Source: Selaginella moellendorffii (lineage: Eukaryota; Plantae; Lycopodiophyta). From it: a stretch of DNA of 64,000 nucleotides. How positions within the stretch are numbered: the first letter of the stretch is position 1; each line of letters starts with the position of its first letter. Both the position numbers and the translations under genes were made by a program. The stretch covers positions 1,069,702 through 1,133,701 of the forward strand of contig NW_003314291.1 in assembly GCF_000143415.4 (NCBI RefSeq), read 5' to 3'. Under the pieces are notes generated by a model. That model worked only from the letters and a program-made list of their open reading frames with translations. It ran no database searches and was not told the DNA's origin. Below are positions 28,850-64,000 of the stretch, piece after piece.

Positions 28850-30428
28850 CTAAAAACACTTCTCAAGCTCCGCAACTGTAAGGCTTGCCTGGTGGATGTG
28901 ATGGTCGATCTTAGGATCTTGGTTTAGTTCCTGCATAAAAATGTAATAGATGTGCTTGCAGGCTAAATATACCTTTCCCCTGTTTTCCCGCTGTGTAAAA
29001 TCTGGACAGGTACAGGATGGATTTTCGCAGATTTTAACAGTATAGCTCGTACCCTTTGATGACTCAGTCACAATAATAAACTCCTTAGCCATAGCACTGA
29101 TGTAGTTTGTCTTTGTGATTGTGCACTTTAGCTCTTTTGCTAGCTTGATCTTCTCTTGTGCACCTTTTGAAATGGAAGACCTGTATTGTATAGCCTTCCC
29201 ATTCCTAGCTGGTCGTGTATGCCGGTCTAGTGTTGATATTGGTGGCATAGCAGTACTAACAGCAACATTTGAGGAAGTCTTTAGCTTGAAACTTGCTCTC
29301 TCCAGACTTTCAATCTCTTTTTTCAAAAGATTGCAGCTTCGCTCAACTGGCCACTCCTCTGGCACAGAATCTGGCTTCAAAATAATTGAGCTGTGGATCC
29401 GGCTTGTATGAGTAACATCAGTCCCACAACAGTAGATCCAGCTTGACTGGTGGCCCTTCACTCCTAGATCTCGACAGCCCCAAAAACATGGCACTGCTGA
29501 AGAACTTGAACCTGAGCGCACAAAAGCGAGACACTGACCTCGATTCCCAATCATTCCAGAGCAACATGCATTGCTCTTGGCACTGACTCTTTGAATTGCC
29601 CAGTTGATACGAGAAACTGGCTCGCGAGAAATAACCTTTTCAACCTCTGGCACTGGACTTACTTGTGTAACAACTGGCACCTCCTCCACTCCATGTTCCT
29701 TAGTTCTTTTCCGGTGTCGTGGAACAGAATGGTAGTCAAATTCTGGACGGTGAGAGCTAGAAGGAGTGATGTTTGACCCATCAAATGTCTGTTGACGCTT
29801 CATACGGGCTGTTCTCATGTCCCCAAGTGGCTCATAACTTGATTTCATAGGAGTTCCAGCAACAACTTCCTCCACCATCTTGGACATTGACCCTGCTGCT
29901 GGTGTTGTCCTTCTACCAACCCGCTCTTGAAGCCTGTCTAAGTTCAGACTTGTACCAGCAAACCTTGCTTCCTGTGCAGCCAAAGTTTTTGATGATTGCT
30001 CAAGAGATCTAGTGAGGTCGGAGAGTGTAGCTTCATAGAGGGACACTTTTCCTTTCCCTGCTTCGGAAGCTCTCAACCTCCAATGTTTGCTCTCAGAGAG
30101 ATTAATTGTTGGTGTAAGTGCAATATCATCAAGTGGTTGATCCTACAAAAAATGCAACATTTGAATGTGACAAGAAAGAAAATGAGAGAAAGCTTACATG
30201 GAGAGTATAATGACCCCACTGAAACATTCGAACTTCCCACCATGCAAGCCAGCATTCCATTTGTGGAAGGTTTTCAATTGGCACTTTGTCTCCTTCACAC
30301 CACCATATGCGCATTTCATTTGTCTTTGCCTCGTGCTCCTCTTTAGTTGGTGCATCCATCCATTTCCGACAAAGCTGTTTGAACTTGTGATGGAAGGTAG
30401 ACTTGATGCATCGGCAATGTTCATTGAC
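28850..30428 (-). pseudogene. MULE-like transposase, 3' exons with the catalytic Glu region and a SWIM finger
   Basis: Exon 30428-30198, GT-AG intron 30197-30143, exon 30142-28850 reading PTINLSESKH (NxxESxH) and CTCPDF...ACKH (SWIM). Confidence 0.8.
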
Positions 30429-30870
30429 AAGCTCTATTTCGTTAAAGTGGGAATTGTCATTATCCCACTTGTAAAATAAGGTTTCCAAACCTTTATATAG
30501 TATATAAATATAACAAAATTCAACTGCATTGAGGCACATGCCATTTTATTTTAAACAAGGAAATGTCTACTCAATCACTTCTCCTCCCCCTGCCACTGCT
30601 TCACCTCTCTCTTCTCCTTGTCATCGTCGTCCAATTTCTTTCCATCCTTTTAATATTGGCTCAGTTGCTCCGAGTCTAGGTGGAGCCCAAGTCCCCATTC
30701 AATCTTTACTTTCCCCTTAGTAATAAAATAACTTCGTAGACTTCCAATAACATGCTGTAACACTTCTAGTATAATGCAAATCCTCTCAAAGAATTGTCTT
30801 TTAATATTAATACAATGGCATGGAACCCCATGCCATAATAAGTTACATTTTTAAATAAATACATGCCATC

Positions 30871-31733
30871 TCAGACTGTTATTTTTTGCCTCCAACGCCT
30901 ATACAATAATCTTGGAATTTCATCACTCTCCACACTATCAGGATTTAAACCCAATAGTAATGCCATCTCTTCTCTAATACGTCCACGCTCATGTTCAGTG
31001 GTCGAAGAACCCATCCGGTTGAGCAGATTATGGAGATGCGGATAGTGCTTAGCTAGACAATATACATGCCATAAATGATGACTGGTGTCTGTCCGATCAA
31101 ATGGCTTCTGATATACCGTTCCATCTGCCATTTGGTTGATTTCTGCAGCCACCTCCTGGACTGGCCGGTTCTCTATCACCATCGCTTCAAGCCGTTTTGC
31201 AAGGTCCCCCAGAACATACGGTTTCTTCTCCCTGGTTTCCATACTGCAAGAGATGGGGTGCACTGCATATGTGTGCGTGTTCGCTGCAATTTTAATCGGC
31301 GAGTCATCGATGATGAGGATTTCACTTGACCTAGCAGTCCGGTTCATCACTACAGCCTCTGGCTTGACGAAGATGGGCTTGCTACCCCTCACATGGACCA
31401 TAGTCAAGCAATCCTCCTGCGTTAGGAGAAAGTCAAATGGTAATATTACTCGCGTTTGATCGTGCATTATCTGTAGCAACGTTAATGCATTGTGGCGCAT
31501 CATGGATGTCCAAACTCCCAATTGCAAATTGAACCCGGCCCTCTGTTTTAAGTGTCGCATGGTCATTATTAGATCCCGCAGTTTCTCCCGTGTGATTAAT
31601 GTGAATCTGTCTCTTTTGACCAACTTGCGACCGCAGGCTTTGGAGGGTGCAGTGACATTCGAGGACGAGCCACGCTCATGGGAGAAAAGGACACCGTTCA
31701 GATCAAAAACGATACAGTACTTTCGCCGTGACT
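30871..31733 (-). CDS. FCP1/NIF-family HAD phosphatase-like terminal exon
   Basis: CIVFDLNGVL (motif I variant), GVWTS (motif II), FVKP (III), LIIDDSPIK (IV). Confidence 0.8.
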
Positions 31734-34700
31734 CTGAAATGAAATGCGTCAGCATAAAAAATGGTACAAGTCAATTTTACCATCTACAATATTAGCGAAT
31801 GGTGCTCCCGATGGTCGTTCAGAGGGTTTTGGTCGAGGAAACGTGAAGGGCGGAAATACTCTCCTCTGCAATGTGGGGTCAATCGCATCCGATGGCGTGT
31901 GGGCACATGCCATTTCAGCTATAGACTCTGGTACAACTAGCTCAACAGTGGCATGGGGTGGTTCCGATGGCGTGTGATCACACGCCATTTCAGCTGGTGC
32001 CTCCGTTGGCAAAGTGGACATGACCGAACAGGCAGCAGGGGCGGTGTAGGGAGGTTCCAACGGCGCATAGTCAGACGATTGGGCACACGTTGAGTCCGTT
32101 GGAAATGAGGATACGACCGGCTCGGCGGCTGGGGCGGCCTCATGCGGGTCCAATGGCGCCTGGTCACCGTCAGTTGGATACGTGGACAAGATTGACTCAG
32201 TGGTATGGGCAGCATCAAGTGGAGCGTGGTCAGCTTGCTTGGCGTTGATATGGATAGTAGCCTCCACCAGCTCTGATGACTCTTGCAGGCAAGTAGAGTC
32301 CACTGGCGGATCCATATGCATGTCCAAATATCTCCCTTTGATTGAGATGGTATCCTCCCTACTGGCTACTAAAAACAAACTCATTAGCACATTGAATCGA
32401 CTATACTGTATTTACCATCAACTGCTATTGGGCGCATTGCTGATTCTGAAGGATTGGACATACATTTCGACCCTTGCTTGGCACTATCCTTCCTCGACAC
32501 TAAAGGCTAGAGTTTGTATCTTAATTCAACTGAATAATCTCTACTTACCATTTCTTCTGCGACCTACATGGACAATGTTAGAAATGGTAAAAGGTTAGGA
32601 ATGGATGTACTATTATTTACTTGATGGTTTGTCTTGTATGACCTTCCTCCGCTGCTCTTTGGCCACCTCAGGCTGGCCATCGTCGTCATCATCATCATCG
32701 TCGTTATTGTGATCGTCACCATTGTGAGGACCATCCAAGTCCTCTTCGTCCTCCTCTTCTTCGTCCTCCTCTTCTTTGTCCTCCTCTTCGTCCTTTTGCT
32801 CTTCCTGCTCATTATCTTTCTCTGGCTCCTCATCCCCCTCCTGCATTTCTTCCATAGGCTGCTCAGGCTGGATGGCTTGTTTTTCCAGGACCATCTTGGG
32901 AAAATCATCTGGCCGAGTCTCCATCTCAAAATACAAGACATTCATAGCCTGTTTCAGTGCTTGACCTAGGACCGTATCCTCACCCGACTGTCTTAACATG
33001 GTTTCTGCACGTTCTTGCACCCTTCGAAGACGACGAGATGAGAAAAACGTGGCCCTGACTTGAAAAGCATCCCTCATCCATTGTACCTCTCCATTGAGAT
33101 TGGGGAAGGGGAGTCCGCCATAGGAATCTGAGTCAGGAGGTGGTGACTGGCTCCTTTCACTCAGCCCTTGATCTGCAATGAATGGCATGAGCACACACGC
33201 CATAACCGCGAGGCATTACCTATCATCTTTTCTTTGCCCTTCTTCCTTTTCGAATCAAACGCCTCTGATCCCGACGACTGTCCAACGTGCTTTCGCTTTT
33301 TATGACCACTGTCAGTTTGAGCTTGGCTGGTGCTTGCCTGTTTTGCCTTTGAAGAAGTGTCTCCTGCAAGGAATGGCATGAGACCACACGCCATTGCAAA
33401 TATAATTTGTACCTCCTTTTTTCCTATTGCTTGTCTGTTTGTCCTTCTTCGACGCGCCACCAGTGCGCTTTTCAGTCCTCGTGTCTGAATATTCACAACG
33501 ATCTATAATCAAAATGGCGTGAGGCCTCACGTGACCTTACCTTGTGCAGGTTGTGAGCTCGGCCTAACATCAGTAGCTGTTAACGCCGTTTCAGCATCTG
33601 GGGGTGGCCACGCTCCTGCATATAGAGCTTGTGAGATAACATTTAAACTTAAAGTGCGTACTCACCAGGTTCGCAGAGAAGATATTGTTTTTCTTTGGCA
33701 ACTGTAATTATATGCTCCATTGAAGTCACCTCTTCAATGGAGTTTGTCACCACAACACACGGGACACCCTTGAGTAGTGCAACTCGAAAGAATAGTCCGC
33801 CGCAGTTGTACTCGATAACGCATTTGCCCTTGGTGTCACCCGCTATTGCATTGAAGACCCAGCTGAGCATTTCCCATGCTGCACCTGGAGCTTTCTTTGG
33901 ATTTGAAAGCTCCATAGCCGTCTTCAGTTCCTCAGGCACGGGTAAATTGACCTCCCTCAGATCAATTCGATCGGCCTTGTCGAACGAAGCTGGGAAGTCA
34001 CTCCAGTCCCACTCTGCTGCAGGACCAATAACAAGGGCGAGTGTGAAGATGCGGACATTCGTCGGTATCTTCTTCTTAGCCATTATCCCATGGATCTCCC
34101 GCATCTCCTTGCCTTTCAACCGAGCCTTCACCTCGTTCAAGGCCTTCCAGAACTTGTGATAGGATTCGGAGTCGTAGATCATATAGTGGACTGAAGATTC
34201 CACCTCCGCAAGTCCCACCATTAAGTCAATGATGGAGCTGACTTCGTCTGCATGAGTGATCTCTTCGTTTGTGAAGTCCATCACACAAAAGATGTTCTTG
34301 ACCTGCTCATCTCCGCGGGAAACGATGCTCCTCCACCTTTGATCCTCATCCGAATTCACGTATACCCGGTAAGGTTCTCGATAGGCCTCTGCTGTGGGGT
34401 CGAGCTGTTTCTGAAGTCGGCGGTCGACATCCCTCTTAATGAAATTTGGATACTGATCCAACTTCTTAGCTTTACTTTTCGTGGCATCCCGCAGCAGATC
34501 GATGAACTTGGGGGCCCACTTCACGTACTCGTCGATGTCTTCATTTGACAAGTCCAGCTCTTCCATCATCTCTTGCGTGGTGTCGATGCTCACCCTCTCC
34601 ACGGCCACTTGCTCGAAGATCCAATCCTTCAATAGCGCACGAGCTCTCAGAGTCGTGCACAAGTCCTCGTATGTCACAATATGGCCGGGAGTCATTTTGG

Positions 34701-36449
34701 TCTTGTTGAAGACTACCTCACCACATAGAAGAGCATTAGCCACTGTCAGAAGGTCGTCGTCGTCTAGAGACCGCGAGAAACGCAAGGCGTTGAGCTTCAA
34801 ATCATTGGGCTTCCGGCCGTCCTCCACACCCATTGAGTTTAGCAACTCCCCGTCATGGTACCTCCTCAGCACATCTACCCATTTGTCAAAAACAACTTTT
34901 GTCGCGAGTAGAATGTTATGGATGTTGAGTGTGTCATTGACCCCCAGTGTTTTCGAGAGAAGACTCGAGAATTCCTGCAATGGAAATGGCGTGAGGCCAC
35001 ATGCTATGCCACATGCAACGAGGCTTACCTGCCAGGCGCTAGTTGCTAGTGCACGTCCTTGTCCTGGTTTTTGTGGCTTCTTCAGTTGAACCCAGAGCTT
35101 CCGTGTTCGTGCCAATGTCTCGTGCAGACCCGATTTGTAGCACGTTTCTTGCTTGACATTCTGCGTGTGGGAGATGGATATGATAGATCGGAGGGGCGAG
35201 TTGCCTTTTATCAGGCGGACAACTCTTGTCTTGAAGACTTTCTTCACCTCCTCGCCCACCATAATATCCAGAACTATCTCTTGCATCGCCAAGCTAGAAT
35301 GCTGCCCGGAGACGGCATAGAACCGGATGTTCTGATCGTCCAACACCTTCCTATTGATCAAGTTTGGAAACCTCGTCTCGCCCTTCATTGTTTGGTAGTA
35401 GGGGATCACGTCTGCGATGTCGGGTGTTACTGGACTTGCCAGCATCTTCTGCTTCAGTTTCTCCACCCACTCATCAGATACTAGCCTGTGGTTGTATTTG
35501 CTTTGGATGTCGATACGGCTCACGTCGATTGTATATACTTTGTTGGAATAGTAACAAGTACTATTATCTGCGACGATTTTTGCTGCCTCTTCTTGCTCTT
35601 TCTGCTCTTTGCGGCTCTTCTTTTAGGTGGGTGTAGTGTTCAAACCCGAGGCAATGGCATCACCGAGTAGCTTCTTTTTTGGAGTAGCAGAGTCGGACGT
35701 CGGCTTGAGCTTGACCACCCTTTTCTGCTTCGGGATAGTTTCCAGATCGACCCCCTTCCCCTTCGCTTCACGAACTGGAGGCACTCTCAACGGCTCAATG
35801 TTGGAATATAGTTTTTGAACATCGCCGTAGGTGAGGTCCGTGGATTCCATGTGATCTTCATAGACCCGCAGCGTCTTTGAAATTGTGGGCCTTCTGGACA
35901 ACCTCTCCCTAGCTCCCTCTAGGAATTCCTCATAGCCGCTGCCCCCCTCCGGGAAGCCGCTAGGATGTGCAAGGTGGATCTTGAAGGCGGACGCTGTCTC
36001 TACCACAAGTGCCAGTCCATATTCTTGCATGGAACTGCATTGAGTGTCTGTCACTTGGATGAGGATCCCCATGCATTCTTTTCTCCCACCATCTGTGTTG
36101 TACAACATCAGATCCTCGCCTTCCATCCCGAAAGTCCAACTGGTGAGCTCCTCCCCCTTCTCTGCATCCACATTGACAGTGGCTGGAAGAAGAATGCAAT
36201 TCCTCACCTGTTCAGAAATGCACAACAATTAGAGCTGACAGATGAAAAGCTAGCAGCTGGAAATAACGTGAGGCCACACGCCATTCACCACTGCATCAGA
36301 TGTCTTGAGGCTGCATCCTAAGATGGCGTGAAGCTACACGCCATCTGTAACCGGACTGCACTCGAGAGCCCAATCGGTGCATGCCAATGTTGCTACTGAA
36401 TGGCATGTGGCCTCATGCCATTTTCTACTTGGCCTAAAAGACTTACCAT
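30871..36449 (-). CDS. Multi-exon cargo gene: ParB/Srx-like + methyltransferase-like fold + acidic linker + FCP1/NIF HAD domain (one premature stop at 35623-35625)
   Basis: Candidate ATG|GTAAG at 36449-36447, long exons ~36200-33666, short GT-AG introns that keep the frame where checked, intron 31734-31780 joins the HAD exon in frame. The 5' micro-exons and those at ~32370-32620 are not fully resolved. Confidence 0.7.
35280..35540 (-). CDS. ParB/Sulfiredoxin-like (DGQHR-like) domain within the cargo gene
   Basis: YTIDVSRI...NHRLVSDEWVEKLKQKM...DVIP...RFYAVSGQHSSLAM follows the ParB-N pattern with GxH; the usual Arg is Ser. Confidence 0.65.
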
Positions 36450-36664
36450 TTGAAGCCGAATGGAGGCCGTGACAATCAAGGCCGGACTCGCTGGCGAATG
36501 TGCACTGTGTGTGCAGCGGATCATAGCAGCAAGGCTACTCTGCCACTTACAGTTGGAGAGTGGCGCTGAAATCTCCCGGGACGCCAAGTGGGCTGCGTGT
36601 GGGTGGCGGAGTGGGCGGCGGAGTTGGCGGCGAAGTTACAAACTGGGTGTGTCTTGAAGTGGAC

Positions 36665-36840
36665 GCCGATGCACACGAGCGCGATGCAAGCGCGAGTGTG
36701 ATGCAAGCGCGAGTGGACGCCGATGCACACGAGAAACCTGTAGAGAAGTGAGCGTGATCGCGAGTGGGAGCGCGATACGAGCGGAAGCGCGAGTGTGATG
36801 CAAGCGCGAGCGCGAGTGTGATGCGAGCGCGAGTACGAAG
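36665..36840. repeat. CG-rich GCGAGTGTGATGCAAGC-type repeat array upstream of the cargo gene
   Basis: Directly visible; mirrored at ~60100-60275. Confidence 0.75.
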
Positions 36841-37174
36841 CAAAATGCAAAACCTAACCTCACACGCGCGAAATGTCACAACGGTTGGTAATCCCGCCAC
36901 GTCATCATTCCTCGGACTTGGGCGCCACCATTAATTTCTGGATTGCCGCGCGCATGCAAGCACGCAAAATCCAAAAGAAATCCGCAACGTCATCATTCCT
37001 CGGACTGCATGCACGCGAAATCCAAAAGAAAGATCATGATTGGGATATCATTTAATACCCTCGCTATATTTATACCATGCATGATTGGATATTCCAAAGC
37101 ATCTTGTATTTCCAAAAATGGCAGATGTTCAGCTAAATAAAGAAATTCTATCTGTTTCTATTTTTCTCTCAAAT

Positions 37175-38315
37175 CAATATTATAGCATATGGGCTCATGC
37201 AATTTTGAACCAAAGAAACCCAAAAAACGTTGGACCCAAAATATTTTGAAAAAACCCAAAAAACCCTAAACATTTTAAACCCAAAAATCCAGGCGTCCTG
37301 TGGCGTTATTCCTTGAATAGCGTGTGGGCGCATGCCATTTTCAGGGCCAAATGCTGAATGGAGAAAAATTCCCTTTCAGTGCAAATGCTGCAAGAGGCAG
37401 ATGCTGAGCACAAAGGACTGTAACTACCTCACATGACACAGATAAACTTTTCTCTATTTGGGAAAGATAAACTTTATAGCGTGTGGGCTCATGCAATTTT
37501 GAACCCAAAAAATGCACCAAAAAATTCTCGGCGTCATCTGGCGTTATCTCTTGAATGGCGTGGGGCCGCATGCCATTTTCAGGGGCACATAGGAGTATAT
37601 TCCTAGGATATTCTGACACGCGCGAGATTTTTTTGAGTTTTCTGGAGATCCAACCGTTAGATCGCAACTAGATTTTACAGAATGGTATACAATGTCTTTC
37701 TTGATGACCCTGCAAAGAAGCATCTCGATCGGACACCACATGAGACCACACGAGCCTTACAATGTTTCAGGGGCATTTGCCATAGATCCGACCGTTATTT
37801 TGCTCCAAGATTTTACAGTTTGGTGTGCATTGACCTTTCCATCGACACTGCAAAGGGACATCACAATCAGATGTGGGATCACAAGAAACTAACTTCACTA
37901 ACTCTGGTTTCACCAAGATCTACGTAAGGAGTTATGAAATGAAAGGACCCTCTCTATTGAATTGTGTTTATGGTCCTATAGCTATAAACAGCTATAAACA
38001 TGACGGGATGCAAATAGATTACTAGGCTGGTCCTGCGAAAATCAAAAACCATAATTGAAAACATTGAAAATGCAAAAAGAAAGGTTTATAATATTTTTGA
38101 ATTTTAAGCAACCAAAGGAATGTAAGTAGGGCATGTGTTTGTAAGTTTAAAAATGCCTCAACCACTTAAATTCCCAAGTAAATAAAGCTATTTCTATTTT
38201 TGGTACAGGTAAACTTTATAGCGTGTGGGCTCATGCAATTTTGAACCCAAAAATGCACCAAAAAATGCTTGACTAGCATTATTCTTTGAATGGCGTGTGG
38301 CCTTATATTGCCATA
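37175..38315. repeat. Three ~130-160-bp direct repeats, each pairing two palindrome copies
   Basis: TATAGCGTGTGGGCTCATGCAATTTTGAACC...TTGAATGGCGTG units at ~37180, ~37475 and ~38215; mirrored in copy 2. Confidence 0.75.
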
Positions 38316-38684
38316 AATGGACGTACACACAGAGCATAATTATTCCTTTACACGGCGAATAATCTTGGCGCAGATCGCTGACATGGCATGGCAAAGTTCG
38401 AATCACTGACATGGTACAGCTGGATCGAGGCAAGGACATGATGTGACAAAGTTCAACCTCCGACAGCAAAGTCTAGAAGCTACTCAGTTTGAAATTTGTC
38501 AGAGGAGTCATAAGATCTAGTTTGTCAGAGGATTTGATGTGACATTCAAGCGTGTGTTATTTTTGAATTCTCGAACTCATTCCTAGGTCTATCATTTTTG
38601 TGCGCCGTGTTCTTGGTTCCGCTGAGCGCAGTGAGCGCTGCTTGTGTAAGCGGCGTTGTGGGCTGTGGTTTATGCGTCTACGAG

Positions 38685-38812
38685 CGGTTGCGGCATTGCG
38701 AGCGCCATTGCGAGCGGCAGTTTATGCGAGTGGCAGTTTGTGCGAGCGGCGCTACGAGCAGTTGCGGTGTTGCGAGCGGCGCTACGAGTAGTTGCGGTGT
38801 TGCGAGCGGCAC
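38685..38812. repeat. 30-bp tandem repeat (GTTGCGGTGTTGCGAGCGGCGCTACGAG)
   Basis: Directly visible; mirrored at ~57900-58030. Confidence 0.75.
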
Positions 38813-39176
38813 TGTCTTTGGTGTGGCTACCGCTTCCTCTTGATATTCGGCACTTGTGCTTCCTGGTATGTTCACCATGGAATGGCTTAGGACCACATTT
38901 AGAAATGGCATGAGGCCACATGCCATCTTGGGCCCTTGCAATTTCATGGCTAGCGTATTGTCATGTATGTTTTTACTTGCCTACAGCTGTGTGTATATCA
39001 AGATGGCATGAGGCCTCATGCCAATTTTGTGAATGCGAAATTTCACGTGGGTGTCAATAGCATGTTTGAATAATGGCATGTGGCCTCATGCTATTGAGGT
39101 TGTTTGGTATGTTATGATTTAGGCCATTCTCCAATCATTTTTTGTATGGTCTTAACTTCTTTTTTGCACTTTCAGA

Positions 39177-42100
39177 ATGGCCTTCAGGGTTGGGGAAAAG
39201 GTTTACATTTTGAATGGTGGGAAAAGAGTTGCAAAAGGGACCCTTGTGTCTATGGATCGGAACTTTGTTATACACTGTCAAAGGCTTGGGGAAGGCAATG
39301 CTGCTGTATCAATAGAGACTGTCTTCGATGGGAATGTGGTCGTTATTGAACGAGGAGAGATGGTCGTCGGGGTAAATGTTGTTGTTGCCTTGAAAAATCT
39401 TCAGAAGAAAGCAGATGTTGGGGACAGTGCAAGTGCGACGCATGTTCCCTCCGTGGATCTTAAGAACCGTGCTACATGGATTCAGGCAAAGGTGTTTCTA
39501 AACAACCCCAAAGGGGAGGTGGTAGCTGAGGGCTTAGCCACAGTTGTCGATCCAAGAGATGCGGTTGCTAATCAAGAATTGGGCTGGGATGATATTGGAG
39601 TTGCGATTTTAGAGGTTGTTGACATAGAAGAAAACAGTCTGACTATTGGAAGCATTGTGCGGTTGAAATTGAGGCACTTAGTGTTTGAGAATGTGAAGGA
39701 TTCACAATCAAACACCACTACAATTGATGACAGAACATCTCTTCATGGGAAAAGAAAGTACACCTTCCTAAAGCGCAGCCAAAGGGATCTGAGCAATGAA
39801 CCGAAAAGGCAGAAAATGGCGATGGAGGTTCGAATGGTCTCGACAGTTGCTTGTTGCAAGAGGAGGTGCTGTCAACATGCTGATTGGGATGCTATTGAAG
39901 AGGAGAAAGCAAGATACAAGACATTGTCCTGGAAGGCAGCTCGCAATTTTGTGTATGAGGCATTACGGTCATCTGTTGATGCTTCAGAACATTAGGTGGG
40001 GGGCATGGTCTTCCAGAGGGGTTTGGTCTGCATGAAGGCATGGAGAATCATTTATTGAGTCCCTCGAACCACATTCTACAGAATCAAAACTGAGTTCGAG
40101 GAACAAAGGGTTCAACAGGCAATCCATGGGAACGACGGTACGCACAAAACCAGGGGTCATGTTGTATATGGAGAGGCAATCTTCAAGAGGTTTGTCGAGA
40201 CATGTAGCGAGCAGCAACCACATAAAACCCGCCTCTTGGAAGATGGAACACGAGACACCCAACGAGTTCTCCCTTCCATGTATACCAAGGGGGCCATATT
40301 GGAAGATGTGAATCGGGAACTCCAGAGTAATGGCTACAGGAAGCTGAGCCAATTTAGATTTAGTAGATTGTGGAGCAACAGGTTCAAGGATGTGAGTATA
40401 GGAAAGTACTCCAGCTTTTCAAAGTGTGACGAGTGCACTACTATCAAAATGGCTTTGTCGAAGAATTCTTGCATCGCTCAAGAGCGAGAGACGTTGGTTA
40501 GAAGGCGACTCGACCACAACATCGAGTAGAGAAGCTGCAGGACTGCATATTATCATAACAGGATTCTCTCCATGGAGAGACCTGACTCTTACCTCTGCAT
40601 CATCCACGACAAAATGGACCAGAAAAAGACGTGCTTACCTCGACTCAATCCTGCCCCCAAGGCAATCTCTTCATCCATGCAGCTGCCTGTGTCTCTGTTT
40701 GGCATAATCGCTCATGGGCATGGTGCCTAGAACTATGGGAACTTCTTTGTACCTCTATGGGGTGGCGGGGGTGCAAACATGATGATTGCGTCCCTAGCAA
40801 AACACTTAAGGTCTCTGCAAAGTGCGCAGACTGAGCTAAACGGCCAACCCTTGCATAAGGCCCTTGTCGATCGAACCCCATACAGGGTTCAGCTGGAGGA
40901 GGAGCAAAGGCTTGCAGTATCGCGTGGGGCCCCATGCCATCCCAGTGAATATGTTGCCGTCAGATTGTAGGGTTATCACGTGAGGCCTCATGCCATTCCG
41001 ACGAGGCTGGTCGCCCGGTGAATGCACAGTCTCATCCAAACGAAGCAGAATCTCAAGGAAGTTCTTGCGGCCGATGTGGCCTTCCACCCCATCTTCTGCT
41101 CCAAACAGACAATGCTAGCAGTGAGAACAAAAACATGTACGTCTTCGCGTACTTGGCGATGCTTGTTGCCAAAGGCATATTTGAAACGGTTACACTTGGC
41201 TTTCTCATGGTTGGGCACACTCATGAAGACGTCGATGCCATGTTCAGTCACCTGGCAGAGTCCCTCCGGCGATCCAATGTCCTCACCCTCCCACAACTCT
41301 ACGATGAATTCCAAAATTGCATCAAAGGCACTGTTGAAGCTGCACTTCTGACAAAGGTTCCAGACTTTAAGGGGTTTGTAAGAGGCTACATCAGGGACGG
41401 ATCCGAAACGCTGATTGGCCACTCCAAGCCTCTTCAGTTTCATTTCAGCATGCGTGACAGTGCTCCAATGATGAGGTACAAGATGAGAGAATGGGACACA
41501 GTGTGGCTGCCAGTGGACGGCATTGAACTCTTCAAGAGAGATCCCATAACTGGGGAACCTATGATTCCTCAGGGTTCCCCACGGCCGATGCACCCGGATG
41601 GACTCAAAGACCAGGAAAGTATAGTGGCCGGGATTAGACAGCATATTGCCTTCTGGAAGAGGGGGTTGGTGTTTAGTGGAGAATCCTATTTTCAGAGGTG
41701 CAAGCCTTTGCTCGAATACTGGGAGAAGATTATATCTGCTATCCAAAATGGGCCGGTTGTATATGAAGAATTGGAAGAGTCCTTTTGGCCAGAACCCAGA
41801 GCACCAGATAGTAGTGGAACAATGTTCTCTGGAAATGCAGTGACAGATAACGATGTTGAGGATCATTATTGTGAGCCGAGGAACAAGAAGCCGGATTCAG
41901 CATTCAATCCAGTACAGGTCTACAAAGGAATGGTCGTGCTTGTCAGACCCAGTAATAAAAAACAAATGATATGGGTGGGGCGCTGCATCACTGATGCAGA
42001 GGAGGACGCGGAAACTAACTCCTTCAATGTAACTGTGGAGTGGTTCAAGCCAAGTTCCGGATATACGAAGGATTGCCTAGAAAAGAGATGGGTGCTAAAT

Positions 42101-42244
42101 CCAAGGGATCTCAGCATGAGCATATCGGTGGATAATGTTGTGCATGGTTGGATGCGGAAGCAGAGTGCCACCATCACCTTGCCAGACCATGCAAGAGATG
42201 CAGCAAGAGCATTCATAACCCGGGTTCAAGGTGAGATTCATTAA
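39177..42244 (+). pseudogene. Sola-like DDD transposase, disrupted copy
   Basis: Colinear with the intact ORF 54467-57535 but has stops at ~39993, ~40056, ~40527 and ~40728 and a 1-bp deletion at ~40957. Confidence 0.9.
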
Positions 42245-43442
42245 TGTTCCTTTACTAAGTTTCTAATGTATTTTATTTCAAGGTGAACAATCCGAATCTG
42301 AATCAGAGGAGGCGTGATGGCATGTGGCCTGAGATGATGTGACATATGCATTTACCAATCACACGTGCATAAATCTAATAATATGGCGTGTGGCCCATAT
42401 TAATGGCACATAAACCCATATTGTGGGCTTACGTGCTTTATGTACCATTATTCCCTTGCAACGTGTGTGTTGGTTTCCTTTTATAACACAACAAACTCCA
42501 TATTTTAGGGTGAAGAGCATTCTCATGGCAAACACAAAATCTGTAAGTGAGGCAGAAAAGGAGACGGAAAAGGAGATAGGTGAAGATGTAGAATATATAA
42601 GTCTTCCAAACTCCCCGTACTATACTCTAGGTGATCATTTTTCTGAACAAACGGCAACATTAACAACTATCGAGAACGCCCCAGTAACGTCAGAGACAAC
42701 AATCCAAAGCAAAACAACTGACCTGGAGAAGGATGATAGTACCGCTGAGAGTACCAAAAAGGAGGTGTCCACTAGCGCTTAGGCTTATAATGGCGTGTGC
42801 CCTCATGCCATTTACTTGATCACCAAATACCTTTTTCCCTTTGCACTAGTATATCTTAATACCGGTCTGAGAAATAGAATGGCATGTGCCCTCAGGCCTT
42901 TTACTAAATCACCTTTGAAAGAAATGCAAGCCTCTATGTCGTAAAAAAAAGGTACTAGAGAAATTCCTTAATAATATGAATGTTATTTAGTTTCATGAAA
43001 ATACACTAAGGGTCAAATGAGTTAAATGACTTCTCCAGACTAGCAATGCCTCTTGCTACACCTTCACAATTAGATTCGTTAGAAAAAGATAACATTGAAT
43101 AATATCTAAATGTTCTCACCATTAAGTGATATGTCTGGCTAATAGGAATGACGTTCATCTTGGAAAGCTCACCACACGCTCAATGAACAAACAAATAGTG
43201 TGTGCGCACATGCCATCGCTCTTCTTTAGCTTCAGATTCGGCTTGTTCACCTTGACAATGAGATTTATTATACAACCAGATGGACTCAGTCTGGACATAA
43301 AGTCACCGCGCTAGTCACCATGCCCCAGATATGTCTAGCCTCTGGACAAAAAACATATAATTTCACGTCATTTTCAAATACTTGAAAATTTGTACTTAGT
43401 CCCATTTTACTGAATAAATCCCACTTTAACGAAATAGAGTAT

Positions 43443-53260: not shown

Positions 53261-54466
53261 AAGCTCTATTTCGTTAAAGTGGGATTTATTCAGTAAAATG
53301 GGACTGGGTACAAATTTTCAAGTATTTGAAAATGACGTGAAATTATATGTTTTTTGTCCAGGGGCTAGACATATCTGGGGCATGGTGACTAGCGCGGTGA
53401 CCTTATGTCCAGACTGAGTCCATCTAGTTGTATAATAAATCTCATTGTCAAGGTGAACAAGCCGAATCTGAAGCTAAAGAAGAGCGATGGCATGCGCGCA
53501 CACACTATTTGTTTGTTCATTGAGCGTGTGGTGAGCTTTCCAAGATGAACATCATTCCTATTAGCCAGACATATAACTTAATGGTGAGAACATTTAGATA
53601 TTATTCAATGTTATCTTTTTCTAACGAATCTAATTGTGAAGGTGTAGCAAGAGGCATTGCTAGTCTGGAGAAGTCATTTAACTCATTTGACCCTTAGTGT
53701 ATTTTCATGAAACTAAATAACATTCATATTATTAAGGAATTTCTCTAGTACCTTTTTTTTACGACATAGAGGCTTGCATTTCTTTCAAAGGTGATTTAGT
53801 AAAAGGCCTGAGGGCACATGCCATTCTATTTCTCAGACCGGTATTAAGATATACTAGTGCAAAGGGAAAAAGGTATTTGGTGATCAAGTAAATGGCATGA
53901 GGGCACACGCCATTATAAGCCTAAGCGCTAGTGGACACCTCCTTTTTGGTACTCTCAGCGGTACTATCATCCTTCTCCGGGTCAGTTGTTTTGCTTTGGA
54001 TTGTTGTCTCTGACGTTACTGGGGCGTTCTCGATAGTTGTTAATGTTGCCGTTTGTTCAGAAAAATGATCACCTGGAGTATAGTACGGGGAGTTTGGAAG
54101 ACTTATATATTCTACATCTTCACCTATCTCCTTCTCCGTCTCCTTTTCTGCCTCACTTACAGATTTTGTGCTTGCCATGAGAACGCTCTTCACCCTAAAA
54201 TATGGAGTTCGTTGTGTTATAAAAGGAAACCAACACACACGCTGCAAGGGAATGATGGTACATAAAGCACGTAAGCCCACAATATGGGTTTATGTGCCAT
54301 TAATATGGGCCACACGCCATATTATTAGATTTATGCACGTGTGATTGGTAAATGCATATGTCACATCATCTTTGTTTTACCTCACACACTATATCAAGCC
54401 TCCTCTGATTCAGATTCGGATTGTTCACCTTGAAATAAAATACATTAGAAACTTTGTAAAGGAATA

Positions 54467-57400
54467 TTAATGAATCTCACCTTGAACCCGAGTTATGAAT
54501 GCTCTTGCTGCATCTCTTGCATGGTCTGGCAAGGTGATGGTGGCACTCTGCTTCCGCATCCAACCATGCACAACATTATCCACCGATATGCTCATGCTGG
54601 GATCCCTTGGATTCAGCACCCATCTCTTTTCTAGGCAATCCTTCGTATATCCGGAACTTGGCTTGAACCACTCCACAGTTACATTGAAGGAGTTAGTTTC
54701 CGCGTCCTCCTCTGCATCAGTGATGCAGCGCCCCACCCATATCATTTGTTTTTTATTACTGGGTCTGACAAGCACGACCATTCCTTTGCAGACCTGTACT
54801 GGATTGAATGCTGAATCCGGCTTCTTGTTCCTCGGCCCACAATAGTGATCCTCAACATCGTTATCTGTCACTGCATTTCCAGAGGACATTGTTCCGCTAC
54901 TATCTGGTGCTCTGGGTTCTGGCCAAAAGGACTCTTCCAATTCTTCATATACAACCGGCCCATTTTGGATAGCAGATATAATCTTTTCCCAGTATTCGAG
55001 CAAAGGCTTGCACCTCTGAAAATAGGATTCTCCACCAAACACCAACCCCCTCTTCCAGAAGGCAATATGCTGTCTAATCCCGGCCACTATACTTTCCTGG
55101 TCTTTGAGTCCATCCGGGTGCATCGGCCGTGGGGAACCCTGAGGAATCATAGGTTCCCCAGTTATGGGATCTCTCTTGAAGAGTTCAATGCCGTCCACTG
55201 GCAGCCACACTGTGTCCCATTCTCTCATCTTGTACCTCATCACTGGAGCACCGTCACACATGCTGAAATGAAACTGAAGAGGCTTGGAGTGGCCAATCAG
55301 CGTTTCGGATCCATCCCTGATGTAGCCTCTTACAAACCCCTTAAAGTCTGGAACCTCTGTCAGAAGTGCAGCTTCAACAGTGCCTTTGATGCAATTTTGG
55401 AATTCATCGTAGAGTTGTGGGAGGGTGAGGACATTGGATCGCCGGAGGGACTCTGCCAGGTGACTGAACATGGCATCGACGTCTTCATGAGTGTGCCCAA
55501 CCATGAGAAAGCCAAGTGTAACCGTTTCAAATATGCCTTTGGCAACAAGCATCGCCAAGTACGCGAAGACGTACATGTTTTTGTTCTCACTGCCAGCATT
55601 GTCTGTTTGGAGCAGAAGATGGGGTGGAAGGCCACATCGGCCGCAAGAACTTCCTTGAGATTCTGCTTCGTTTGGATGAGGCTGTGCATTCACCGGGCGA
55701 CCAGCCTCGTCGAAATGGCATGAGGCCTCACGTGATAACCCTACAATCTGACGGCCAACATATTCACTGGGATGGCATGGGGCCCCACGCGATACTGCAA
55801 GCCTTTGCTCCTCCTCCAGCTGAACCCTGTATGGGGTTCGATCGACAAGGGCCTTATGCAAGGGTTGGCCGTTCAGCTCAGTCTGCGCACTTTGCAGAGA
55901 CCTTAAGTGTTTTGCTAGGGACGCAATCATCATGTTTGCACCCCCGCCACCCCATAGAGGTACAAAGAAGTTCCCATAGTTCTGGGCACCATGCCCATGA
56001 GCGATTATGCCAAACAGAGACACAGGCAGCTGCATGGATGAAGAGATTGCCTTGGGGGCAGGATTGAGTCGAGGTAAGCACGTCTTTTTCTGGTCCATTT
56101 TGTCGTGGATGATGCAGAGGTAAGAGTCAGGTCTCTCCATGGAGAGAATCCTGTTATGATAATATGCAGTCCTGCAGCTTCTCTGCTCGATGTTGTGGTC
56201 GAGCCGCCTTCTAACCAACGTCTCTCGCTCTTGAGCGCTGCAAGAATTCTTCGACAAAGCCATTTTGATAGCAGTGCACTCGTCACACTTTGAAAAGCTG
56301 GAGTACTTTCCTATACTCACATCCTTGAACCTGTTGCTCCACAATCTACTAAATCTAGATTGGCTCAGCTTCCTGTAGCCATTACTCTGGAGTTCCCGAT
56401 TCACATCTTCCAATATGGCCCCCTTGGTATACATGGAAGGGAGAACTCGTTGGGTGTCTCGAGTTCCATCTTCCAAGAGGCGGGTTTTATGTGGTTGCTG
56501 CTCGCTACATGTCTCGACAAACCTCTTGAAGATTGCCTCTCCATATACAACATGACCCCTGGTTTTGTGCGTACCGTCGTTCCCATGGACTGCCTGTTGA
56601 ACCCTTTGTTCCTCGAACTCAGTTTTGATTCTGTAGAATGTGCTTCGAGGGACTCCATAAATGATTCTCCATGCCTTCATGCAGACCAAACCCCTCTGGA
56701 AGACCATGCCCCCCACCTGATGTTCTGAAGCATCAACAGATGACCGTAATGCCTCATACACAAAATTGCGAGCTGCCTTCCAGGACAATGTCTTGTATCT
56801 TGCTCTCTCCTCTTCAATAGCATCCCAATCAGCATGTTGACAGCACCTCCTCTTGCAACAAGCAACTGTCGAGACCATTCGAACCTCCATCGCCATTTTC
56901 TGCCTTTTCGGTTCGTTGCTCAGATCCCTTTGGCTGCGCTTTAGGAAGGTGTACTTTCTTTTCCCATGAAGAGATGTTCTGTCATCAGTTGTAGTGGTGT
57001 TTGATTGTGAATCCTTCACATTCTCAAACACTAAGTGCCTCAATTTCCACCGCACAATGCTTCCAATAGTCAGACTGTTTTCTTCTGTGTCAACAACCTC
57101 TAAAATCGCAACTCCAATATCATCCCAGCCCAATTCTTGATTAGCAACCGCATCTCTTGGATCGACAACTGTGGCTAAGCCCTCAGCTACCACCTCCCCC
57201 TCGGGGTTGTTTAGAAACACTTTTGCCTGAATCCATGTAGCACGGTTCTTAAGATCCACGGAGGGAACATGCGTCGCACTTGCGCTGTCCCCAACATCTG
57301 CTTTCTTCTGAAGATTTTTCAAGGCAACAACAACATTTACCCCGACGACCATCTCTCCTCGTTCAATAGCGACCACATTCCCATCGAAGACAGTCTCTAC

Positions 57401-57535
57401 TGATACAGCAGCATTGCCTTCCCCAAGCCTTTCACAGTGTATAACAAAGTTCCGATCCATAGACACAAGGGTCCCTTTTGCAACTCTCTTCCCACCATTC
57501 AAAATGTAAACCTTTTCCCCAACCCTGAAGGCCAT
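54467..57535 (-). CDS. Intact 1022-aa Sola-like DDD transposase (DUF7869-like core)
   Basis: CCxxxC / CxxAW / HGN, KCDEC, IIHDKMDQ, QTDNAGSENKN, VGHTHEDVDAMFS. It has a duplicated N-terminal beta-barrel-like unit and a C-terminal Tudor/SH3-like unit, and is flanked by TIRs with a 4-bp TSD. Confidence 0.82.
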   Translation of the reverse strand: MAFRVGEKVYILNGGKRVAKGTLVSMDRNFVIHCERLGEGNAAVSVETVFDGNVVAIERGEMVVGVNVVVALKNLQKKADVGDSASATHVPSVDLKNRATWIQAKVFLNNPEGEVVAEGLATVVDPRDAVANQELGWDDIGVAILEVVDTEENSLTIGSIVRWKLRHLVFENVKDSQSNTTTTDDRTSLHGKRKYTFLKRSQRDLSNEPKRQKMAMEVRMVSTVACCKRRCCQHADWDAIEEERARYKTLSWKAARNFVYEALRSSVDASEHQVGGMVFQRGLVCMKAWRIIYGVPRSTFYRIKTEFEEQRVQQAVHGNDGTHKTRGHVVYGEAIFKRFVETCSEQQPHKTRLLEDGTRDTQRVLPSMYTKGAILEDVNRELQSNGYRKLSQSRFSRLWSNRFKDVSIGKYSSFSKCDECTAIKMALSKNSCSAQERETLVRRRLDHNIEQRSCRTAYYHNRILSMERPDSYLCIIHDKMDQKKTCLPRLNPAPKAISSSMQLPVSLFGIIAHGHGAQNYGNFFVPLWGGGGANMMIASLAKHLRSLQSAQTELNGQPLHKALVDRTPYRVQLEEEQRLAVSRGAPCHPSEYVGRQIVGLSREASCHFDEAGRPVNAQPHPNEAESQGSSCGRCGLPPHLLLQTDNAGSENKNMYVFAYLAMLVAKGIFETVTLGFLMVGHTHEDVDAMFSHLAESLRRSNVLTLPQLYDEFQNCIKGTVEAALLTEVPDFKGFVRGYIRDGSETLIGHSKPLQFHFSMCDGAPVMRYKMREWDTVWLPVDGIELFKRDPITGEPMIPQGSPRPMHPDGLKDQESIVAGIRQHIAFWKRGLVFGGESYFQRCKPLLEYWEKIISAIQNGPVVYEELEESFWPEPRAPDSSGTMSSGNAVTDNDVEDHYCGPRNKKPDSAFNPVQVCKGMVVLVRPSNKKQMIWVGRCITDAEEDAETNSFNVTVEWFKPSSGYTKDCLEKRWVLNPRDPSMSISVDNVVHGWMRKQSATITLPDHARDAARAFITRVQGEIH

Positions 57536-60482
57536 TCTGAAAGTGCAGAAAAGAAGTTAAGACCATACAAAAAATGATTGGAGAATGGCCTAAATCATAA
57601 CATACCAAACAACCTCAATAGCATGAGGCCACATGCCATTATTCAAACATGCTATTGACACCCACATGAAATTTCGCATTCACAAAATTGGCATGAGGCT
57701 TCATGCCATCTTGATATACACACAGCTGCAGGCAAGTAAAAACATACATGACAATACGCTAGCCATGAAATTGCAAGGGCCCAAGATGGCATGTGGCCTC
57801 ATGCCATTTCTAAATGTGGTCCTAAGCCATTCCATGGTGAACATACCAGGAAGCACAAGTGCCGAATATCAAGAGGAAGCGGTAGCCACACCAAAGACAG
57901 TGCCGCTCGCAACACCGCAACTACTCGTAGCGCCGCTCGCAACACCGCAACTGCTCGTAGCGCCGCTCGCACAAACTGCCACTCGCATAAACTGCCGCTC
58001 GCAATGGGGCTCGCAATGCCGCAACCGCTCGTAGACGCATAAACCACAGCCCACAACGCCGCTTACACAAGCAGCGCTCACTGCGCTCAGCGGAACCAAG
58101 AACACGGCGCACAAAAATGATAGACCTAGGAATGAGTTCGAGAATTCAAAAATAACACACGCTTGAACGTCACATCAAATCCTCTGACAAACCAGATCTT
58201 ATGATTCCTCTGACAAATTTCAAACTGAGTAGCTTCTAGACTTTGCTGTCGGAGGTTGAACTTTGTCACATCATGTCCTTGCCTCGATCCAGCTGTGCCA
58301 TGTCAGTGATTCGAACTTTGCCATGCCATGTCAGCGATCCGCGCCAAGATTATTCGCCGTGTAAAGGAATAATTACGCTGTGTGTGTACGTCCATTTATG
58401 GCAATATAAGGCCACACGCCATTCAAAGAATAATGCTCGACATAAGGCCACACGCCATTCAAAGAATAATGCTAGTCGAGCATTTTTTGGTGCATTTTTG
58501 GGTTCAAAATTGCATGAGCCCACACGCTATAAAGTTTACCTGTACCAAAAATAGAAACAGCTTTATTTACTTGGGAATTTAAGTGGTTGAGGCATTTTTA
58601 AACTTACAAACACATGCCCTACTTACATTCCTTTGGTTGCCTAAAATTCAAAAATATTATAAACCTTTCTTTTTGCATTTTCAATGTTTTCAATTATGGT
58701 TTTTGATTTTCGTAGGACCAGCCTAGTAATCTATTTGCATCCCGTCATGTTTATAGCTAGCTTTCGTTCGTCCCCTTCACTAGCCTGAGATACATCTGCT
58801 CGGCATCTGCCTCTTACAGCATTTGCCCAGAAAGGGCATCTTTCTTCACGCAGCATTTGCCACATGTTTAGGGTTTAGGGTTTAGCAATTCAGTAGCTTG
58901 ATAAACATGCAAATACAGAACTTGATGCAAAATCCTTTGATATGTCACAATGCCCCTAGGACCATAAACACATTTCAATAGAGAGGGTCCTTTCATTTCA
59001 TAACTCCTTACGTAGATCTTGGTGAAACCAGAGTTAGTGAAGTTAGTTTCTTGTGATCCCGCATCTGATTGTGATGTCCCTTTGCAGTTTCGATGGAAAG
59101 GTCAATGCACACCAAACTGTGAAATCTTGGAGCAAAATAACGGTCGGATCTATGGCAAATGCCCCTGAAACATTGTAAGGCTCGTGTGGTCTCATGTGGT
59201 GTCCGATTGAGATGCTTCTTTGCAGAGTCATCAAGAAAGACATTGTATACCATTCTGTAAAATCTAGTTGTGATCTAACGGTTGGATCTCTAGAAAACTC
59301 AAAAAAATCTCGCGCATGTCAGAATATCCTAGGAATATACTCCTATGTGCCCCTGAAAATGGCATGCGGCCCCACGCCATTCAAGAGATAATGCCAGATG
59401 ACGCCGAGAATTTTTTGGTGCATTTTTTGGGTTCAAAATTGCATGAGCCCACACGCTATAAAGTTTATCTTTGCCAAATAGAGAAAAGTTTATCTGTGTC
59501 ATGTGAGGTAGTTACAGTCCTTTGTGCTCGGCATCTGCCTCTTGCAGCATTTGCACTGAAAGGGAATTTTTCTCCATTCAGCATTTGGCCCTGAAAATGG
59601 CATGCGCCCACACGCCATTCAAGGAATAACGCCACAGGACGCCTGGATTTTTGGGTTTAAAATGTTTAGGGTTTTTTGGGTTTTTTCAAAATATTTTGGG
59701 TCCAACGTTTTTTGGGTTTCTTTGGTTCAAAATTGCATGAGCCCACACGCTATAATATTGATTTGAGAGAAAAATAGAAACAGATAGAATTTCTTTATTT
59801 AGCTGAACATCTGCCATTTTTGGAAATACAAGATGCTTTGGAATATCCAATCATGCATGGTAGAAATATAGCGAGGGTATTAAATGATATCCCAATCATG
59901 ATCTTTCTTTTGGATTTCGCGTGCATGCAGTCCGAGGAATGATGACGTTGCGGATTTCTTTTGGATTTTGCGTGCTTGCATGCGCGCGGCAATCCAGAAA
60001 TTAATGGTGGCGCCCAAGTCCGAGGAATGATGACGTGGCGGGATTACCAACCGTTGTGACATTTCGCGCGTGTGAGGTTAGGTTTTGCATTTTGCTTTGT
60101 ACTCGCGCTCGCACACTCGCGCTCGCGCTCGCATCACACTCGCGCTCCCGCTCGCATCGCGCTCCCACTCGCGATCACGCTCACTTCTCTACAGGTTTCT
60201 CGTGTGCATCGGCGTCCACTCGCGCTTGCATCACACTCGCGCTCGCATCGCGCTCGTGTGCATCGGCGTCCACTTCAAGACACACCCAGTTTGTAACTTC
60301 GCCGCCAACTCCGCCGCCCACTCCACCACCCACACGCAGCCCACTTGGCGTCCCGGGAGATTTCAGCACCACTCTCCAACTATAAGTGGCAGAGTAGCCT
60401 TGCTGCTACGATCCGCTGCACACACAGTGCACATTCGCCAGCGAGTCCGGCCTCGATTGTCACGGCCTCCATTCGGCTTCAA

Positions 60483-63400: not shown

Positions 63401-64000
63401 AGGCCTCACGCCATTTTGATTATAGATCGTTGTGAATATTCAGACACGAGGACTGAAAAGCGCACTGGTGGCGCGTCGAAGAAGGACAAACAGACAAGCA
63501 ATAGGAAAAAAGGAGGTACAAATTATATTTGCAATGGCGTGTGGTCTCATGCCATTCCTTGCAGGAGACACTTCTTCAAAGGCAAAACAGGCAAGCACCA
63601 GCCAAGCTCAAACTGACAGTGGTCATAAAAAGCGAAAGCACGTTGGACAGTCGTCGGGATCAGAGGCGTTTGATTCGAAAAGGAAGAAGGGCAACGAAAA
63701 GATGATAGGTAATGCCTCGCGGTTATGGCGTGTGTGCTCATGCCATTCATTGCAGATCAAGGGCTGAGTGAAAGGAGCCAGTCACCACCTTCTGACTCAG
63801 ATTCCTATGGCGGACTCCCCTTCCCCAATCTCAATGGAGAGGTACAATGGATGAGGGATGCTTTTCAAGTCAGGGCCACGTTTTTCTCATCTCGTCGTCT
63901 TCGAAGGGTGCAAGAACGTGCAGAAACCATGTTAAGACAGTCGGGTGAGGATACGGTCCTAGGTCACGCACTAAAACAGGCTATGGATGTCTTGTATTTT
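60483..64000 (+). pseudogene. Cargo gene, copy 2 (4-bp deletion at ~60997, stop at 63067-63069; continues beyond window)
   Basis: Introns 61900-61953, 63263-63312, 63388-63425 (or -63443), 63516-63564 and 63709-63755 are all GT-AG and frame-preserving. Confidence 0.8.

Follow-up and report, generated by a model that had tools for sequence, protein, structure and literature searches.

A transposon gene of Selaginella moellendorffii predicted to encode a ParB-like, methylase-like and NIF-domain fusion protein, and a 20-bp palindrome dispersed through its element

Why should a DNA transposon of a lycopod carry, beside its transposase gene, a second gene that appears to join a ParB-like domain, a DNA methylase-like domain, an acidic stretch and an FCP1-type domain in a single protein? 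The question is raised by a 64,000-nt stretch of the Selaginella moellendorffii genome (contig NW_003314291.1, positions 1,069,702 to 1,133,701), which we call the window and in whose coordinates all positions are given. The window holds two copies of a 13-kb element with such a gene, referred to below as the cargo gene; in copy 1 it extends from 36449 to 30871 on the minus strand. Our explanation is that the cargo protein is non-catalytic, acts in the manner of VANC and TnpA, binds a palindrome of its own element and keeps that element active or mobile; we would give it an even chance of being correct. The exon chain, the ParB fold and the methylase fold are predictions throughout.

The best explanation for the element is a cut-and-paste transposon with 4-bp target duplications, the ParB-methylase-NIF gene being its accessory gene. 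Copy 1 (30429..43442, 13,014 bp) has short imperfect terminal inverted repeats (TIRs) and is flanked by the duplicated TGAC (30425-30428 and 43443-43446); once copy 1 and one duplication are removed in silico, an open reading frame (ORF) is open across the insertion site. The transposase gene of copy 1 (39162..42244, plus strand; Pfam DUF7869, E 5.8e-42) is divergent from the cargo gene. The mobile-element context proposed in an initial annotation, which was made from the sequence alone, thus holds up. Copy 2 (53261..64000, plus strand) is inverted relative to copy 1, is 98.3% identical to it and extends beyond the window. A 287-bp miniature inverted-repeat transposable element (MITE; 15957-16243, with flank to 16247) has related TIRs and the 4-bp duplication CATT, and is devoid of both element genes. 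Target duplications of 4 bp are reportedly a trait of the Sola superfamily, and the element fits that superfamily in this respect. In the literature searched, which lay mostly outside subscription journals, no paper on the term DUF7869 was found.

The evidence that carries our explanation begins with the palindrome. The 20-bp sequence TGGCRTG-N6-CAYGCCA has 44 matches in the window at no more than two mismatches, against 0.70 expected, and 100 shuffles gave at most 3. The matches comprise 22 in copy 1 (30524..43215), 20 in copy 2 and two in the MITE, near each of its ends (16000 and 16174), with none elsewhere in the window. In copy 1, three more sites came from a matrix scan, for a total of 25, and the N6 spacer proved to be palindromic as well, on average; with a matrix built from the same sites that it scores, the best score outside the element copies and the MITE was 2.0, compared to 9-41 inside. 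The sites avoid coding sequence: coding DNA makes up 61% of copy 1 but holds 4 of the 25 palindromes (P ~1e-5), and the cargo gene is 87.5% coding, yet two of its nine palindromes are coding (0 of 200,000 draws). The other seven are found in five of its ten predicted introns. Clusters of three occur in cargo intron 1 and upstream of the transposase ORF. The most variable position of the palindrome core is a CpG (G 43%, A 54%), which could be a mark of decay or a sign that methylation is tolerated. In the transposase coding sequence, a low-complexity insertion (40920-40995) contains two in-frame palindromes, and two are found in predicted exon 10 of the cargo gene (31893 and 31968), within a 75-bp duplication.

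The second line of evidence is the ParB-like domain of the cargo protein (approximately 35140..35565, minus strand). It had been proposed in the initial annotation, and the fold search, which could have spoken against it, bears it out. An AlphaFold2 model built on 15 sequences reached a predicted local distance difference test score (pLDDT) of 81.6. All 29 of the 29 rows listed by Foldseek were ParB, Noc, KorB, PadC, sulfiredoxin, SbnI or Atu1540 (best E 1.1e-4), and VIA aligned the model to PadC with Z 9.6 and a root-mean-square deviation (rmsd) of 3.0 over 99 aligned positions, which points to a ParB/Srx fold. The GxxR (Box II) motif of ParB CTPases is replaced by SGQHS, and GQH followed by S or T, without the arginine, is found in 15 of 15 ParB domains aligned. 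According to the accessible part of 10.1101/2025.10.10.680097, the GxxR arginine is needed for nucleotide (NTP) binding in the ParB-fold proteins tested, and canonical ParB reads palindromic parS sites. In ParB CTPases it is a helix-turn-helix (HTH) domain that recognises parS, and NTP gates the closing of the clamp and its spreading. R126 of the ParB alignment is nearly invariant and could replace the missing arginine. Behind the ParB fold lies a conserved helical domain (residues ~395-590, pLDDT ~76-90 in its core), for which the structure search, made with this domain as part of a longer modelled segment, returned no fold match. A homodimer prediction of the ParB domain, computed with the alignment not in use, scored 0.00 and speaks neither for nor against a dimer. 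When the N-terminal 190 residues were compared with the corresponding domains of four relatives, the match was unconvincing (probability 1%).

Because the site is palindromic, a dimer is to be expected, and the encoded ParB fold has bacterial members that read palindromes. We propose that the cargo protein would contact the 20-bp palindrome as a dimer, with the ParB domain and the helical domain that follows as its reading parts, and that it would coat the whole 13 kb by way of the numerous sites located in the introns, in the promoter and at the ends.

The palindrome might instead be a site of the transposase, with the cargo protein doing something else or nothing. Palindromes near both ends of the MITE are what would be expected of mobilisation sites, and the AtMu1 transposase alone is described as binding and activating its own family (accessible part of 10.64898/2026.08.24.746577). 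Most palindromes, however, are located kilobases from the ends, in cargo introns, whereas the terminal 50 bp of the element ends bear a different repeated short word (8/15 matches), which is itself a candidate site of the transposase. Moreover, ParB genes adjoin inverted-repeat arrays in the unrelated Plavaka/EnSpm superfamily, as far as described in the available text of 10.1101/2025.02.11.637652. We consider this alternative rather unlikely.

The cargo protein might also bind the palindrome solely as a cofactor of transposition, compacting the 13 kb and joining the ends in the manner of a ParB-type bridge or clamp while silencing is unaffected. The ParB fold agrees with this, as do the sites, which occur over the full length of the element and close to either end of the MITE, and maize TnpA is required for transposition according to the accessible part of 10.64898/2026.08.24.746577. 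What such a cofactor leaves unexplained are the acidic stretch and the NIF domain, which are kept in gene models from liverwort to lycopod, and the three-site clusters in cargo intron 1 and upstream of the transposase ORF; we consider it unlikely.

The next domain of the cargo protein, at approximately 33676..34380 on the minus strand, is predicted to have the fold of a beta-class N4/N6 DNA methylase. In these enzymes (D/S/N)PP(Y/F) is the catalytic motif, of which the aromatic residue of PPY is needed for catalysis, and FxGxG is the motif that binds S-adenosylmethionine. The model is weak (mean pLDDT 60.7). In the VIA ranking, the top 9 of 48,161 chains were all N4/N6 DNA methylases (M.BceJIV, CcrM, M1.HpyAVI, MboIIA, M.RsrI, TTHA0409, EcoP15I, 6k0w and PvuII; Z 6.8-8.2, rmsd 3.5-4.7). 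It is the occupation of the top ranks by a single family that argues for the fold, since a Z of ~7-8 alone is common. The predicted fold is of the Rossmann type, and motif IV (VMDF) precedes motif I (EYNCGG). The initial annotation had described it as methyltransferase-like and probably inactive; the peptides it quoted are present in the translation, DPPY and FxGxG are absent as it had stated, and both parts of that description are sustained. All 5 aligned sequences keep the aspartate of motif IV and have lost PPY, and in each of the 4 that cover motif I it has the form [DE]xxxGG. Copy 1 differs from the family majority at 76 positions, of which 40 are listed; all counts of such differences given here refer to those 40, none of which restores PPY.

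The methylase could nevertheless be active with a non-standard site and write 4-methylcytosine or 6-methyladenine on the element. The beta-class fold is kept, as are the motif IV aspartate and the acidic residue and GG of motif I, and methyl marking has been proposed for an Ectocarpus protein (accessible part of PMC12477816). With PPY missing from all aligned sequences, and not regained in the listed differences, such activity is quite improbable. Under our explanation the methylase fold without DPPY would grip or shield the DNA and would not methylate it.

The C-terminal half of the cargo protein contains the acidic region and the FCP1-like domain of the haloacid dehalogenase (HAD) class that the initial annotation had reported, and both were recovered. 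The share of D and E is 59% over residues 1030-1100 (exon 7), and Pfam PF03031 matches the NIF/FCP1 domain (approximately 31273-31719, minus strand) with E 2.6e-6 and 27.7 bits, above the cut-off of 21.8. The motifs of this domain are DLNG (within DLNGV), WTS, K and IIDD, the last three being presumably motifs II to IV. The second aspartate of DxDxT/V is thus replaced by asparagine, and the first aspartate, the T/S of motif II, the K of motif III and the DD of motif IV are present. None of the listed differences from the family majority hits DLNG. The second aspartate assists catalysis in CTDSP1 (accessible part of PMC7281111). The nearest ESM Atlas clusters of the NIF domain are NIF proteins mostly from giant viruses (0.95-0.96); these matches do not show transfer.

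Judged from the aligned sequences, the catalytic motifs appear to be altered family-wide and not solely through decay (SGQHS, the aspartate without PPY, and DLNG). Because all three are altered, the cargo protein is likely to be a reader and scaffold. Contact with the transcription machinery would be made by the acidic stretch and by the NIF domain, which lacks its second aspartate; the partner is possibly the phosphorylated C-terminal domain (CTD) of RNA polymerase II (Pol II), a role suggested by what is known of the NIF family. Through these parts the protein may favour transcription. The net effect would resemble that of VANC and TnpA, namely local relief from silencing by 5-methylcytosine (5mC) and help in transposition, provided in trans also to broken copies and MITEs. 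The initial annotation had suggested a chromatin or transcription modulator that protects the element; with the palindrome of introns and spacers, that suggestion acquires a specific candidate target.

The cargo protein depends on a predicted splicing pattern. An in-frame GT-AG chain of eleven predicted exons leads from 36449 to 30871 on the minus strand and comprises 1627 codons; all ten introns are GT-AG, and nine of them measure 47-57 nt. Exon 1 (36447..36449) is the ATG alone, followed by GTAAG, and is the weakest exon call, with no read support. Exon 2 (35029..36207) encodes the N-terminal region, a basic linker and the ParB-like domain. The 54-nt intron 2 (34975..35028) is in frame, hidden inside the longest ORF, and holds one palindrome; its position corresponds to a gap in the relative P0001, and the models of several relatives stop at the matching W-K/Q-V. 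Exon 3 (33666..34974) encodes the conserved helical domain and the methylase-like domain, exons 4-6 (33615-33541, 33484-33413, 33363-33220) a basic low-complexity linker, exon 7 (32621..33172) a region with the acidic stretch, exons 8-10 (32563-32549, 32499-32416, 32368-31781) a Pro/Ser/Thr-rich linker, and exon 11 (30871..31733) the NIF/FCP1-type HAD domain and a C-terminal tail. For exon 5 the acceptor 33502, which keeps the frame as well, was dropped in favor of 33484 because the intron would be 38 nt.

Compared to the family majority, copy 1 has indels of 24, 12 and 3 nt in or at the small exons. The 12-nt indel in exons 4-6 preserves the frame, and the 24- and 3-nt indels (exons 8-10) are also multiples of three. 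To run without a stop from the methylase through the whole NIF exon, a spliced path requires no fewer than eight introns, as in the predicted chain, and none of 300 block-shuffled spacers allowed such a path. The splice rules of this test were chosen after the introns had been seen, so that its result is support and not proof.

Two observations concern the 5' region of the cargo gene. Upstream of the predicted ATG, at a distance of 65 nt, a stretch of 40 nt (36514-36553) matches the 3' terminus of large-subunit (LSU) rRNA, with a weak Rfam LSU match (model positions 3338-3373, E 4.1). Abundant RNA reads fit this stretch and then continue into unrelated sequence; it may be a captured rRNA fragment. 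A contig from sequencing run X12 joins 26 foreign letters to position 36441, immediately after a minus-strand AG. This 26-nt loose end was not found in the 64-kb window and could be an alternative upstream exon or part of another allele.

Both copies in the window have decayed. The cargo gene of copy 1 carries an in-frame TAA at 35625-35623 (codon 196), where copy 2 and the DNA-type runs X2 and X3 have a lysine; the stop is private to copy 1, and the family majority allele is without it. The cargo gene of copy 2 has a 4-bp frameshift deletion near 60997. The transposase of copy 1 has four stops and a 1-bp gap, and that of copy 2 is open for 1022 codons (57535-54467, minus strand). The two copies are thus complementary, with an open transposase in copy 2 and cargo genes broken at different places; they face each other with ~10 kb between them (32928-43439 and 53264-64000). 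The listed differences of copy 1 from the family majority are of the C-to-T type in 32 of 40 cases, and 25 of these are at CG or CHG, contexts that account for 35% of the available C. This excess indicates that host 5mC acts on the element, and the pattern of differences is, on the sequence evidence, that of a methylated copy in neutral decay. Between the window copies the ratio of nonsynonymous to synonymous substitution rates, computed on an exon model predating intron 2, was 0.71 for the cargo gene (52 changes) and 0.50 for the transposase (39 changes), with too few changes to interpret.

For algal transposons, cargo of the ParB-methylase kind has been reported before, as has ParB next to inverted repeats, in the accessible parts of the two sources cited next. 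The Ectocarpus element Sola1-1_Ec32 (21.5 kb, 282-bp TIR, 4-bp duplication) encodes a 1104-residue accessory protein that is proposed to bind and methyl-mark its own element and whose methylase is predicted to be productive (PMC12477816). The Selaginella element resembles it by description: both are large TIR elements with a 4-bp duplication, in both the accessory gene and the transposase gene lie on opposite strands, and in both a ParB-like domain is fused to an N4C/N6A methylase. In contrast to Sola1-1_Ec32 as described, we find a NIF domain, an acidic stretch and a palindrome, and the host there is a brown alga. A Plavaka (EnSpm) element of the red alga Bostrychia has the ParB-like accessory protein PAG2/PAG3, with inverted-repeat units as its proposed sites, and an N6 methylase gene (10.1101/2025.02.11.637652). 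According to that description, its ParB is fused to a 2-oxoglutarate oxygenase, its methylase, which comes with a SET domain, is encoded by a gene of its own, and its repeats form tandem arrays beside PAG3, whereas ours are single palindromes across introns, spacers and the MITE. This algal precedent for ParB-methylase cargo had been overlooked in the initial annotation, as had the stop at codon 196, the in-frame intron at 35028-34975, the loss of the ParB arginine motif and the palindrome.

With respect to function, the counterparts are plant anti-silencing systems. VANC binds short motifs in the introns and terminal non-coding DNA of its element, Arabidopsis VANDAL (accessible part of PMC5735166), and En/Spm TnpA and the AtMu1 transposase act similarly on their own elements (accessible part of 10.64898/2026.08.24.746577). 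Shared with VANC and TnpA are an element-specific short motif enriched in the non-coding DNA of the element and an accessory protein encoded by the element. Those systems belong to Mutator or CACTA elements and use 8-10-bp motifs, and no ParB, methylase or NIF domain is named in the accessible text of these sources. Binding and demethylation have been demonstrated for the VANC system, whereas for the cargo protein we infer them. Phage and prophage ParB-N6/N4 methylase fusions have the same two folds in the same order (phage loci and their algal derivatives are covered in the accessible part of PMC4738411). They differ from the cargo protein, in which GxxR and DPPY are replaced and introns, the helical domain, linkers and the NIF domain are added, and no sequence match between the cargo protein and such fusions was found in PHROGs, NCBIfam or a phage collection. 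With the FCP1/SCP CTD phosphatases the cargo protein shares the NIF family, the second aspartate being asparagine.

A full HMMER scan for relatives returned 18 matches, from which P0006 was dropped as an unrelated repeat protein. The best protein match is a Selaginella moellendorffii gene model with 28% identity. The relatives that share the domain order are gene models, not transcripts. P0036, a model of 1064 residues from the liverwort Riccia sorocarpa, has the ParB (148-413), helical and methylase domains, an acidic linker and the NIF domain in the same order; its match to Pfam N6_N4_Mtase (E 5.8e-4) is below the cut-off and that to NIF (24.8 bits) above it. In P0017, a Diphasiastrum model, the tail of ParB is joined to NIF. 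Further named relatives are from Calypogeia and Selaginella. In the ESM Atlas, the matching plant clusters are represented by proteins of 813 residues (0.97, the top match) and 1673 residues (0.93), followed by phage ParB-methylase clusters at 0.77-0.79, which serve as leads only.

A word-index homologue search gave none with a 638-residue query and none among proteins of 882-2515 residues; at near length it gave one protein, already known. PDB sequence searches with the cargo protein returned nothing useful, and its ParB and methylase parts were not recognised by Pfam, PHROGs or NCBIfam. Metagenome and viral contigs contained no confirmed relative (66 and 11 candidates); the candidate locus L001 was rejected as a bacterial glycosyltransferase locus, and P0022 had no match in the phage collection. 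The literature searched contained no paper on such a land-plant gene or on a NIF fusion, and preprint supplements may list plant cases.

Several results weigh against our explanation. With regard to splicing, the single spliced ORF claimed in the initial annotation stands as an in-frame GT-AG chain, and it is interrupted in this copy by the TAA; a splice joint was seen in none of 8 sequencing runs compared with the gene. Three RNA runs with the same species label, of each of which ~12% was sampled, gave 192, 119 and 254 reads, almost all of which fall on a single rRNA-like spot of 40 nt. Contigs of runs X1 and X12, whose RNA nature is only guessed and which may be DNA, cross predicted introns uncut. 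A short protein form without NIF may exist, since the ESM Atlas plant clusters are represented by proteins of both lengths; retention of intron 3 would yield 835 residues. Intron 2 was spotted partly through its palindrome, which slightly inflates the non-coding bias of the sites. With regard to the domains, Foldseek gave no match for the methylase model at E<=0.001 in PDB or BFVD, which, together with the weak model, makes the evidence for the methylase fold one of moderate strength. P0017 retains DxD in its NIF domain, so that loss of the phosphatase does not extend to all relatives. According to the accessible part of 10.64898/2026.08.24.746577, transposases are able to bind their own elements and activate them with no accessory protein involved. 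Finally, the listed differences of copy 1 comprise 10 synonymous and 30 non-synonymous changes, and with both window copies broken and copy 1 in neutral decay, protection is not at work here.

That there are two products or genes, one for a ParB-methylase protein of 835 residues and one for an acidic/NIF protein, with the fusion as a prediction artefact, would agree with the absence of splice joints from the 8 runs and with the 813-residue cluster as top ESM Atlas match, but is highly improbable, because the 33 nt between the read-through stop (33649) and the next exon leave no room for a promoter, because ten GT-AG introns, nine of them of 47-57 nt, form a chain that was absent from all shuffles, and because the long form is matched by the gene models P0036 and the 1673-residue Atlas cluster.

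The remainder of the window is repeat-rich. The host gene split by copy 1 (28850-30428 and 43443-43760) encodes a transposase with a SWIM finger (Pfam SWIM, E 0.12), which from its motifs we take to be of the Mutator-like (MULE) type. In the right element end, behind the transposase stop, there is an inverted repeat of ~60 bp with 80% identity (42264-42326 and 43207-43270), with a short acidic ORF between its arms (42414-42782). Short tandem repeats rich in CpG lie on both sides of the divergent promoter region of the cargo and transposase genes (36587-36853 and 38709-38813). No structured RNA reached the threshold in an Rfam scan of the element. Tandem and nested Gypsy-type long terminal repeat (LTR) retroelements occupy 1-28650 and 43900-47850, and their LTR-side regions bear 12-bp repeat arrays. 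A long interspersed nuclear element (LINE) at 47821-53261, with ORF1 and a long endonuclease/reverse transcriptase ORF, is cut at its 3' end by element copy 2.

Beyond the explanation preferred here, a bolder version can be stated, which we regard as speculative and rather unlikely. In it, an old family of transposon proteins of seed-free land plants would have turned three enzymes into readers: the ParB domain would load and spread on a parS-like intronic palindrome, the methylase fold would shield the DNA from 5mC writers, and the FCP1-type domain would hold the phosphorylated Pol II CTD. Since it is precisely the CpG at which the palindrome varies (CG or CA/TG), methylation or deamination may leave the site legible. 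If true, eukaryotes would possess a ParB/parS system of self-recognition with a direct link to the transcription cycle.

Sequence-specific anti-silencing by transposons has been shown for few systems (VANC, TnpA, AtMu1), and a candidate protein and a sharply defined 20-bp site are found together here. If the cargo protein works without catalysis, this would revise the proposal that such cargo writes a methyl mark, and would offer a compact, programmable-looking tool to keep a locus unsilenced.

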